A stretch of 64,000 nt of DNA, taken from positions 6,560,001 through 6,624,000 of the forward strand of contig CAVUSO010000001.1 in assembly GCA_963744145.1 (NCBI GenBank). The letters run 5' to 3'. The notes beneath the pieces were generated by a model. It saw only the letters and a list, made by a program, of their open reading frames with translations, was not told the DNA's origin and ran no database searches. The position numbers were made by a program, and so were the translations under genes. This DNA is from an uncultured cyanobacterium. Lineage in GTDB: Bacteria > Cyanobacteriota > Cyanobacteriia > Cyanobacteriales > CAWUOF01. Positions 63,061 through 64,000 of this stretch are shown here, in pieces. Within the stretch, counting starts at the first letter, position 1, and each line of letters opens with the position of its first letter.

Positions 63061-64000
63061 GTGAGTGTCACAGTTCGCTTTACCCCAAGTCTCACCGGAA
63101 ATTTACAGATCGGACCAGCTAGAATAGCAGTTCTCAACTGGTTATTTGCTCGACATAGTGGGGGTCAGTTTATAGTCAGAATAGAAGATATTGATCAAGT
63201 GCGATCGCAAGACCAAGAGGGAGAAGAATCTAACTCCACCGATGCACAAAATATGCTGGATCAACTTGCTTGGTTGGGGTTAAATTGGGATCAAGAACCA
63301 ATTTTGTCATCTCAGCGTCTTGATATTTATCAACAAGCAATTCAGAAACTATTAGATCAGGGTTTAGCTTATCGTTGCTATTGTACCCCAGCAGAACTAA
63401 CCCAAATTCAAGAGGAACAAACAAACGGAAAAGAAGTTGCTCACTACGATAATCGTCATCGACAATTGACTCAGGAACAAGAAGCAACTTTTCGAGCAGA
63501 AGGACGTAGTGCAGTAATTCGGTTTAAGATCGATCAAGATCGTCAAATATCTTGGAATGACCTAGTACATGGTCAAGTCACCAGGAAAAGTAGTGATCTG
63601 GGTGGAGATATTATTATAGCTGGTGTGGCTGCTCCAGATCAGATTGGTCAACCCCTGCAAAATTTAACAGTGGTAGTAGATGATATCAATTTGGGAATTA
63701 CCCATGTGATTCAAGATGAAGATCTGATGATCACTACCCCAACCCAAATTTTGCTCTATGAAGCTTTAGCAGGAAAAATCCCAGAATTTGCCCATACACC
63801 ATTAATTTTAAATGAATCTGAGCAAACTCGATCTAAATCAGCAAGTTTCATCTCCATTTTTGATTTTAAGAAATTAGGTTATACATCAGAAGTAATCACT
63901 AACTATCTGACTTTGCTAGGGTGGACACCACCAGATAATAAAGAACGGTTTACTTTACAACAAGCAGCAGAAAAATTCAGCTTGGAGCGGTTTAATAAAA
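63061..64000 (+). CDS. Glutamate-tRNA ligase-like protein with degenerate catalytic motifs (runs off the window end)
   Basis: GTG start after AGGAG (63046-63050); open frame MSVTVRFTPSLTGNLQIGPAR...RIEDID...WLGLNWD...AYRCYCT...YDNRHR...ITHVIQDED...FAHTPLILN; absent from the ORF track because it has no stop. Confidence 0.88.
   Translation, partial: MSVTVRFTPSLTGNLQIGPARIAVLNWLFARHSGGQFIVRIEDIDQVRSQDQEGEESNSTDAQNMLDQLAWLGLNWDQEPILSSQRLDIYQQAIQKLLDQGLAYRCYCTPAELTQIQEEQTNGKEVAHYDNRHRQLTQEQEATFRAEGRSAVIRFKIDQDRQISWNDLVHGQVTRKSSDLGGDIIIAGVAAPDQIGQPLQNLTVVVDDINLGITHVIQDEDLMITTPTQILLYEALAGKIPEFAHTPLILNESEQTRSKSASFISIFDFKKLGYTSEVITNYLTLLGWTPPDNKERFTLQQAAEKFSLERFNK

Follow-up and report, generated by a model that had tools for sequence, protein, structure and literature searches.

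What would a cyanobacterium do with a second glutamyl-tRNA synthetase (GluRS) in which the motifs of the active site have been replaced? This question is raised by a gene at the downstream end of the window, that is, of the whole 64,000-nt stretch of DNA analyzed here, which comes from contig CAVUSO010000001.1 of an uncultured cyanobacterium. We refer to the source genome as G000, so that the window is G000:C1:6560001-6624000 and a window position x, also downstream of the window end, corresponds to G000:C1:6560000+x. The answer that we favor, with slightly better than even confidence, is that the gene encodes a catalytically disabled, membrane-tethered paralogue of GluRS, the head of which would be kept as a binding module, with tRNA-Glu or tRNA-Gln as the likeliest ligand.

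A GluRS-like gene continues beyond the window

The list of open reading frames (ORFs) contains a frame at 63061..63999 on the + strand that starts with GTG, encodes 313 aa and is still open at the window end. The main features of the gene are:

63046..63050, + strand: Shine-Dalgarno-like AGGAG, 10 nt 5' of the GTG start, read directly from the letters
63061..64000, + strand: window part of the GluRS-like gene, codons 1-313 of 1135, most of the GluRS catalytic domain
x = 64081-64473, + strand: anticodon-binding domain PF19269, residues 341-471 (E = 1.7e-13, 51.6 bits), modeled with a predicted local distance difference test (pLDDT) score of ~90-97
x = 66466-66468, + strand: stop codon of the gene, outside the window

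A first-pass annotation of the window had described 313 stop-free codons behind a good ribosome-binding site (RBS), and both statements agree with the ORF and with the AGGAG motif. It had also named a break of the frame soon after the window as a possibility to be checked. The frame stays open: the complete ORF comprises 1135 codons (L003:562-3969, corresponding to G000:C1:6623061-6626468) and extends 2.5 kb beyond the window. Scans for promoters and terminators gave signals no higher than in shuffled sequence.

In the window fragment, Pfam domain PF00749 matches residues 3-310 (E = 4.3e-72), and the NCBIfam model gltX_bact (TIGR00464) scores 349.9 bits as a glutamate--tRNA ligase (EC 6.1.1.17). 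For the full protein, PF00749 covers residues 3-325 with 248.8 bits, the TIGR00464 score rises to 452.5 bits against a curated cut-off of 289.95, and the GluRS body is matched over its full length by the Thermosynechococcus GluRS of PDB entry 2CFO (residues 3-486, E = 5.2e-156). The remaining five frames of the full gene contain 67-95 stops each, which, together with the PF00749 match and the gltX_bact score, argues that the frame is not a product of chance. Judged by these matches, a full GluRS body is present, with a Rossmann-type catalytic domain and an anticodon-binding domain. In an AlphaFold2 model of the full protein, built on a 17-row alignment, the pLDDT of the body is mostly 80-97 and is low only at residues 46-55 (an acidic insertion), at ~110-130 and in the KMSKS loop (260-262).

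A canonical gltX elsewhere in the genome and a single orthologue

The first-pass annotation had regarded the gene as a paralogue, with a canonical gltX to be expected elsewhere. This expectation was borne out, because an intact gltX of 492 aa (G000:C1:6240299-6241777) lies ~381 kb from the long form, as we call the 1135-codon gene and its product; the long form is thus not the sole gltX. The canonical copy has intact motifs (PSPTGKLHIG, RIEDTD, PLYN, IRGEDH, and KLSKR) and is 57% identical to the long-form body over 488 aligned positions. The body shares 53-59% identity with canonical cyanobacterial copies, which are 63-94% identical among themselves.

A GluRS match was found in 40 of the 41 related genomes sampled, and a second locus only in G000 and in G001, the sole other species genome of the family of G000 (f1), which represents a sister genus. 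The G001 orthologue has 1102-1108 aa and the same architecture, and G001 also carries a canonical gltX of 482 aa. The canonical locus is syntenic in the two genomes, with a common downstream neighbor.

A word-indexed search of 5.8 billion clusters, in the range of 624-1987 aa, yielded 283 matches among 7999 scored candidates. Among the 120 matches listed, only the G000 and G001 proteins were covered over their full length, and the other 118 carry the CAAD domain (PF14159). An exhaustive HMMER search of 1.84 billion representatives placed the same two proteins at the top, and the others among the matches listed had at most 749 aa; eight atypical HMMER matches were inspected and proved to be canonical or CAAD-type. 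Among the matches listed, neither search found a third fusion of GluRS with a coiled coil.

Such rarity, with an occurrence in two genomes only, is what a pseudogene or an assembly artefact might produce. However, two assemblies, made independently and from different genera, contain the same architecture, the frames of 3.3-3.4 kb are intact in both at 43% identity, an RBS is present and the N-terminus aligns, so that we consider this explanation barely credible.

Signature motifs and invariant positions are altered

Both long forms were aligned with 18 canonical cyanobacterial GluRS bodies, comprising the two genomes' own copies, 3 CAAD-type enzymes and 13 plain ones; loci L009 and L015 were left out because the motif filter detected no ORF in either. 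The motif equivalents in the window, all on the + strand, are:

63085..63114: PSLTGNLQIG, HIGH-region equivalent, residues 9-18, with Gln16 in place of the first His of HIGH and Leu in place of Pro11
63178..63195: RIEDID, residues 40-45; canonical R-EDTD (R(I/V)EDTD), with Thr44 replaced by Ile
63208..63237: acidic stretch QDQEGEESNS, residues 50-59, which includes an 8-residue insertion
63652..63663: PLQN, residues 198-201; canonical PLYN, with the Tyr that contacts the glutamate carboxylate replaced by Gln200
63709..63726: IQDEDL, residues 217-222; canonical IRGEDH, with Arg218Gln, Gly219Asp and His222Leu
63826..63840: TRSKS, KMSKS-loop equivalent, residues 256-260; canonical KLSKR

All strings quoted in the first-pass annotation occur in the translation, both those of the scaffold (WLGLNWD, AYRCYCT, YDNRHR, SDLGGD, and FAHTPLILN) and those of the deviating motifs and the insertion (TPSLTGNLQIG, RIEDID, PLQN, IQDEDL, TRSKS, and QDQEGEESNS). 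Its claim that the catalytic motifs depart from the consensus agrees with the alignment: five of five signature motifs, which show little or no variation among the 18 canonical copies, are altered in the G000 long form, and four of five in the G001 orthologue. The HIGH region, canonically PSPTG-LHIG (invariant in the 18), reads PSLTGNLQIG in G000 and PSPNGNLEIG in G001, so that the first His of the invariant LHIG is missing from both (LQIG and LEIG). The R-EDTD motif has become RIEDID and RIEDKD, respectively, the PLYN motif PLQN and IQDN, and the KLSKR loop, again invariant in the 18, TRSKS and KLSEA. The short acidic insertion is also present as described. Its eight residues are a gap in all 19 other rows of the alignment; the orthologue is among these rows, and the insertion is thus specific to the G000 lineage.

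In class I enzymes, the first His of HIGH and the lysines of KMSKS matter for ATP chemistry. For the glutamate site we transferred the residue numbering of Thermus thermophilus GluRS by motif position, not by alignment to 1J09. In that enzyme, as described in PMC2978374, the substrate glutamate is surrounded by a strictly conserved network of Arg5, Arg205 and Asp195, Arg205 hydrogen-bonds the glutamate, and Tyr187 contacts its carboxylate. By this motif-level mapping, the equivalents of Arg5 (Arg6) and Asp195 are kept in G000, whereas Arg205 corresponds to Gln218 and Tyr187 to Gln200; in the G001 long form, the Tyr187 equivalent is Asp.

The head would no longer activate glutamate because the first HIGH His, most of the KMSKS loop and the carboxylate-binding Arg and Tyr have been replaced, and from these sequence changes we infer a loss of aminoacylation. 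Alternatively, the long form might still be an active, membrane-anchored GluRS with unusual motifs, equivalent to the CAAD-type enzymes, such that each cell would have one soluble and one membrane-bound enzyme. This would be in line with the score above the curated gltX equivalog cut-off (452.5 vs 289.95 bits), with the retention of Arg6, the Asp of VVDD and the second KMSKS-loop Lys in G000, and with genus g72, in which a CAAD-type and a plain gltX both appear intact. We nevertheless consider it very unlikely, given the Gln/Glu in place of the HIGH His, the Gln/Asp in place of the glutamate-contacting Tyr, the Gln in place of Arg218 in G000 and the TRSKS/KLSEA loops, all in columns that are invariant in the 18 canonical copies, the three CAAD-type enzymes included. 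Moreover, the key catalytic sites altered in both long forms carry differing residues (His to Gln/Glu, Tyr to Gln/Asp, and KLSKR to TRSKS/KLSEA), and such differences between orthologues argue that these sites are no longer constrained.

The alterations extend over the entire body, in which about 25% of the otherwise invariant GluRS positions have been replaced. Of the 194 columns that are invariant in the 18 canonical copies, 51 are changed in G000, 47 in G001 and 23 in both, whereas 119 are kept in both. The 23 double hits exceed the 12.4 expected under independence (p = 1e-4), and five of these changes led to the same residue in both long forms (A8T, R117Q, A126V, R128H, and T264I). The excess of shared columns, together with the differing residues at key sites, fits a catalytic loss in the common ancestor of the two long forms, followed by unconstrained drift at those sites.

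A long stalk and a predicted membrane anchor follow the GluRS body

The first-pass annotation had envisaged a fusion to further domains beyond the window, and indeed the body is followed by a linker, then by a long coiled coil and finally by a hydrophobic helix at the C-terminus. The features of this part, all on the + strand, are:

x = 64531-64725: disordered acidic linker, residues ~491-555, net charge -13, pLDDT 28-42; by composition it can be followed to ~560
x = 64726-66393: coiled-coil stalk, residues 556-1111, 24% Gln, 0% Pro, with coiled-coil-type Pfam matches
x = 64963-65106: in-frame tandem duplication in the stalk, 63 nt x 2.3
x = 65308-65742: in-frame tandem duplication in the stalk, 231 nt x 1.9
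x = 66394-66462: C-terminal hydrophobic helix, residues 1112-1134, the only segment of the protein with Kyte-Doolittle(19) > 1.6

In the AlphaFold2 model, the pLDDT is ~30 at residues 503-559, and helices span residues 556-860 and 868-1134. A hydrophobic periodicity of 3.5 residues is 5-13 times background from ~526 as far as the blocks were tested (at least 1050), whereas the ratio is 0.0-0.3 in the five blocks spanning residues 1-525. The units of the two duplications correspond to 77 and 21 codons, each a multiple of seven. If straight, the stalk could reach up to ~80 nm from the membrane (556 residues x ~0.15 nm).

The hydrophobic segment stops one residue short of the C-terminus and can be aligned with five anchors from other tail proteins (alignment A1, see below). 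We infer that it is a tail anchor, which would leave the stalk and the head in the cytoplasm.

Tails of the same family in other cyanobacteria

A search with the last 235 residues against 401 genomes of the order gave coiled-coil matches, some of them in proteins without any head. Two complete headless proteins, of 721 aa in G202 and 583 aa in G137, consist only of a coiled coil of Q/E-rich repeats and an anchor-like C-terminal helix. In other proteins, those of genus g61, the same tail follows a piece of NAD-dependent DNA ligase. The G128 protein (881 aa) has a homologous tail behind a DNA_ligase_OB domain, a ligase Zn finger and two HhH domains, without an adenylation domain. By reading, the proteins of G226 (834 aa) and G194 (701 aa) have the same build, and for G194 the precomputed Pfam list (P0272) agrees. 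A full ligA with the adenylation domain is present elsewhere in all three ligase-headed genomes checked. These proteins of family f38 look like membrane-to-DNA tethers, and the libraries searched gave no name for them. The genes are:

L026:685-2850(-): headless tail gene of G202
L027:961-2712(-): headless tail gene of G137
L039:4144-6789 (G128:C1:7671643-7674288): ligase-headed tail gene, family f38
L070:917-3421: ligase-headed tail gene of G226, family f38
L071:1154-3259: ligase-headed tail gene of G194, family f38

Six anchors align with a common signature (A1), in which a long Q/E-rich heptad helix ends with ...SQL..QLSQL(R/Q)xQ(T/K)P... and is followed by a hydrophobic helix that contains A-x3-G-S and lies within ~10 residues of the C-terminus. 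The G000 protein conforms to this definition and is recovered by the A1 profile at 1.3e-31 (model positions 2-78). Matches that include the anchor occur in 19 of the 401 genomes of the order (2 of f1, 4 of f19, and 13 of f38), and a further 18 genomes have A1 matches at E <= 1e-5 to the coiled coil only. Of 401 genomes sampled across the phylum, G000 alone matched A1 at E <= 1e-10, and a word search with the tail profile among long proteins gave at least 4 matches. No named family was found for the tail: NCBIfam gave only sub-cutoff coiled-coil matches, and ESM Atlas scores did not exceed 0.84.

The repeats of the headless members are very regular, with units of ~35-42 aa in many near-identical copies. 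Such arrays seem to break assemblies, and several homologues end at contig ends.

In genus g72, a gltX gene is found next to a tail gene. Both genomes of this genus (G137 and G119) have two gltX genes. The first is CAAD-type (632 and 633 aa, PF14159 confirmed) and lies beside the usual downstream neighbor. The second is plain and encodes 495 aa with all motifs intact. The headless tail gene follows it directly on the same strand, after ~985 bp in G137 and ~725 bp in G119, and in G119 the tail gene runs off the contig:

L072:1162-2649(-) with the tail gene of L027: plain gltX and tail gene of G137
L074:1332-2819(-) with L074:1-605(-): plain gltX and tail gene of G119

This adjacency may represent the state before a fusion, or it may reflect that a soluble GluRS and the tail protein work as a pair. 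In genus g48, G202 and G053 each have a single, CAAD-type gltX, and no gltX was found upstream of the G202 tail gene in the 548 bp before the contig end.

Selection, composition and phylogeny

The two long-form orthologues are 43% identical overall and have intact frames of 1135 and 1108 codons. By region, identity is highest in the catalytic domain (56%), followed by the anticodon-binding domain (51%), the last 30 residues (50%) and the stalk (32%). The proportions of nonsynonymous and synonymous differences according to Nei and Gojobori (pN/pS) were 0.25/0.61, 0.30/0.65 and 0.44/0.64 for the catalytic domain, the anticodon-binding domain and the stalk, respectively, compared to 0.14/0.72 for the canonical pair of G000 and G001. 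The constraint on the anticodon-binding domain was similar to that on the catalytic domain (dN/dS ~0.26 vs 0.24), but these ratios are rough, as synonymous sites approach saturation (pS 0.6-0.7). Even so, replacement changes have clearly been suppressed in the long form, which, by this comparison, appears to be maintained by selection. The first-pass annotation had proposed dN/dS among orthologues as a check, and the one orthologue, with pN of 0.25 against pS of 0.61 in the catalytic domain and an intact frame of 1108 codons, does not look neutral.

The GC content at third codon positions (GC3) is lower in the long forms than in the canonical genes (0.27 vs 0.34 and 0.25 vs 0.33). In the phylogenetic trees the long forms cluster together (ultrafast bootstrap/SH-like approximate likelihood ratio test, UFBoot/SH-aLRT, 98/95; SH-aLRT 99 and 98 in later trees), with branches of 0.7-0.94 compared to a median of 0.26-0.3. 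The pair falls inside the cyanobacterial clade when the tree is rooted with distant GluRS, and in the free tree it stands beside the f19 GluRS clade (SH-aLRT 90). The approximately unbiased test did not reject constrained trees, both for a grouping with the family's own canonical pair (p-AU 0.62 and 0.47) and for one with the tail-adjacent copies of g72 (p-AU 0.31).

These data bear on the view that the function resides in the tail, as a structural or spacing protein of a membrane system, and that the GluRS head, the result of an accidental fusion with a neighboring gltX copy, is a tolerated and decaying passenger with no ligand of its own. Headless tail proteins do occur, the head has a rate of evolution about double that of the canonical copy (dN 0.30 vs 0.15), about 25% of the invariant positions have been lost everywhere in it, and its GC3 is below that of the canonical gene (0.27 vs 0.34). 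However, the frame has remained intact in both genera despite divergence to 54% identity, and pN is well under pS. The stalk, at 32% identity, is less conserved than the two domains of the head (56% and 51%). If the ~490 residues were a passenger, one would expect a truncation or deletion in one lineage at least. A passenger head is thus quite improbable in our judgment.

A possible role for the long form

In the reading that we prefer, a disabled, membrane-tethered GluRS with a retained binding head, the C-terminal helix would insert as a tail anchor, and the stalk would act as a coiled coil that holds the head in the cytoplasm, up to ~80 nm off the membrane. The head would not activate glutamate, and the canonical gltX would do the housekeeping. 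As a binding module, the head would most likely bind the ligand of its ancestor, tRNA-Glu or tRNA-Gln, and the protein would hold or concentrate these tRNAs at the membrane. The first-pass annotation had likewise thought of tRNA-Glu binding, or else of a control of flux into tetrapyrroles, as possible non-catalytic roles. The gene could have originated when a gltX copy was joined to a pre-existing gene for a tail-anchored coiled coil, and the unfused arrangement exists in g72. The known job of the anticodon-binding domain is tRNA binding. We favor tRNA-Glu and tRNA-Gln because this domain is constrained, because the sibling head is a nucleic-acid binder stripped of catalysis, and because an intact gltX is associated with the tail in g72. 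On this reading, the two heads of the tail family, GluRS and the LigA part, each represent a nucleic-acid-binding housekeeping enzyme without catalytic capacity.

Several observations weigh against this interpretation. With respect to catalysis, the IRGEDH motif is intact in the G001 long form, and the G000 long form retains the second Lys of the KMSKS loop. In addition, of the earlier claim that the main active-site motifs are altered, the alteration as such stands, but the changes are spread over the whole body and are not concentrated in the motifs: no enrichment was found in G000 (10 of 29 motif columns vs 41 of 165 other invariant columns, p = 0.36) or in a second test (8/29 vs 39/165, p = 0.64). 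This distribution implies that the entire body is relaxed, so that tRNA binding may have decayed too. Invariant Arg or Lys residues have been replaced by other residues at 10 of 28 positions in G000 and 6 of 28 in G001 (double changes at these positions were not significantly enriched, 6/28 vs 17/166, p = 0.11), and the net charge of the head is -18, compared to -5 for the canonical copy of the same genome and -3 to -16 for the canonical set. The loss of basic residues and the body-wide relaxation speak against strong tRNA binding and keep the protein-scaffold and passenger readings alive. Furthermore, to judge from the headless tail proteins, no head is needed for the tail to function, the dN/dS values are approximate, as mentioned above, only two sequences with the architecture of a dead GluRS on a stalk are known, and the long-form loci of G000 and G001 share no neighbors that would hint at a pathway.

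The same data could be explained if the head were a protein-binding or regulatory module, a pseudoenzyme scaffold that recruits, for example, a GluRS partner such as glutamyl-tRNA reductase to the membrane. In its favor, Glu-tRNA-Glu feeds the C5 tetrapyrrole pathway in cyanobacteria. The lost invariant Arg/Lys residues (10/28 and 6/28) and the more negative net charge fit a weakened RNA binding, and the relaxation is body-wide, yet AlphaFold2 predicts the fold with confidence. On the other hand, the gene neighborhood points to no partner, the DNA-binding head of the sibling fusion favors a nucleic-acid theme, and the anticodon-binding domain is kept under constraint. We regard a protein-binding head as unlikely, though less so than the other alternatives.

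The preferred reading of a tRNA-binding head can be extended, tentatively and with more doubt than confidence, to the tail family as a whole. The family would use disabled or truncated nucleic-acid enzymes as capture heads, a dead GluRS for tRNA and the OB-Zn-HhH part of ligase for DNA, each kept at a constant spacing of tens of nanometers from the membrane, and gltX would have been drawn to the tail repeatedly, as the adjacency in g72 and the fusion in f1 may indicate. If true, this would imply a functional link of Glu-tRNA metabolism, in translation or in C5 tetrapyrrole synthesis, with a membrane site.

Neighboring genes and further observations on gltX loci

Directly upstream of the long form, at window positions 61221-62852 on the + strand, lies a gene for a 543-aa protein with hydrophobic segments in its first ~200 residues. 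WD40 repeats follow the hydrophobic part (PF00400 and many beta-propeller models), and the gene is not conserved beside the G001 orthologue.

In five genomes from two families, the housekeeping gltX (plain or CAAD-type) precedes a conserved gene for a protein of ~170-190 aa with a hydrophobic N-terminus:

L002:3054-3581 (G000), L036:454-1017 (G001), L073:2698-3204, L075:98-670 and L076:130-651: conserved gene after housekeeping gltX

In G036, gltX gave two abutting matches (query 1-377 and 356-486) within a single frame of 520 aa (G036:C68:13135-14631), which may reflect a local rearrangement or a split of the alignment. In the CAAD-type GluRS of G038 and G032, the linkers between body and CAAD are ~170-220 aa long, proline-rich and internally repetitive, and the length of such linkers varies greatly between genomes (proteins of 645-793 aa):

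L008:1498-3879 (G038) and L014:859-3078(-) (G032): CAAD-type GluRS with long linkers

Implications

Until now, the membrane anchoring of aminoacyl-tRNA synthetases has been described as a cyanobacterial peculiarity that depends on CAAD and concerns active, single-copy enzymes. The long form would reach the membrane by a second route, unrelated to CAAD. As a full-length synthetase that seems to have abandoned catalysis, it offers a natural test case for the use of the fold after the loss of its chemistry. With the ligase-headed and headless relatives, it would make up a hitherto undescribed family of long coiled-coil proteins with tail anchors in filamentous-type cyanobacteria, and these proteins may position nucleic acids relative to membranes. 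There is also a practical aspect. The long form scores far above the NCBI gltX cut-off, so automatic annotation is likely to report two functional GluRS genes per genome, which would mislead inventories of metabolism and of the translation apparatus.

Comparison with known systems

The closest known counterparts are the CAAD-type GluRS (GluRS^C) and other synthetases of cyanobacteria that are anchored to membranes. According to PMC4893482, CAAD enzymes are catalytically active and the sole copy in the genome, and their origin is proposed to be a fusion of neighboring gltX and curt1 genes. They resemble the long form in that a cyanobacterial class I synthetase carries a C-terminal membrane-anchoring extension, which for the long form is predicted. 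The proposed origin from gltX and a neighboring membrane-protein gene has a parallel in the gltX-then-tail-gene adjacency of g72, and by this analogy it is plausible that the long form arose by the same route with a different neighbor.

The differences are considerable. The first-pass annotation had suggested CAAD as an extra domain, which we reject: the full protein has no PF14159 match at E <= 0.1, whereas the same scan finds this domain in 7/7 CAAD-type GluRS. In the long form, ~555 residues of coiled coil precede the predicted anchor, one terminal helix, whereas CAAD has two helices and a short coil. All seven CAAD-type GluRS examined keep every motif (the PSPTGSLHIG of G137_2 differs only at a variable position of the HIGH region), whereas the long forms of G000 and G001 have degraded motifs and coexist with a canonical gltX in the genome, unlike the sole active copies portrayed in PMC4893482.

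With canonical GluRS, the long form shares both Pfam domains, a score above the TIGR00464 cut-off and a full-length match to 2CFO; it differs in its replaced HIGH, KMSKS and glutamate-binding residues and in 645 extra C-terminal residues. GluQRS (YadB) is likewise a GluRS-derived paralogue beside the housekeeping enzyme, but it lacks the anticodon-binding domain and is catalytically active. An identity of the long form as GluQRS was rejected, since the respective models stay under their cut-offs (185.5 vs 276.7 and 185.3 vs 250) and the anticodon-binding domain is present.

Neither a GluRS-coiled-coil fusion nor a dead cyanobacterial GluRS paralogue nor the ligase-headed relatives turned up in full-text searches, which lay outside subscription journals and supplements, and none of the three is mentioned in the accessible part of a coiled-coil survey of cyanobacteria (PMC7002697).

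The HisRS-like domain of GCN2 and HisZ are synthetase-like pseudoenzymes that have kept the fold for tRNA binding or regulation. The long form would resemble them in having a synthetase fold without aminoacylation, which here is a prediction. They are soluble or fused to a kinase and derived from the class II enzyme HisRS, and none is known to have a coiled coil as a membrane tether.

The LigA-headed proteins of f38 share with the long form a homologous tail and anchor, a head taken from a housekeeping nucleic-acid enzyme without catalytic capacity, and a canonical gene elsewhere in the genome. Whereas the long form has a full-length GluRS head degraded by point changes, theirs is a DNA ligase cut down to the OB, Zn-finger and HhH domains, with DNA as the presumed ligand.

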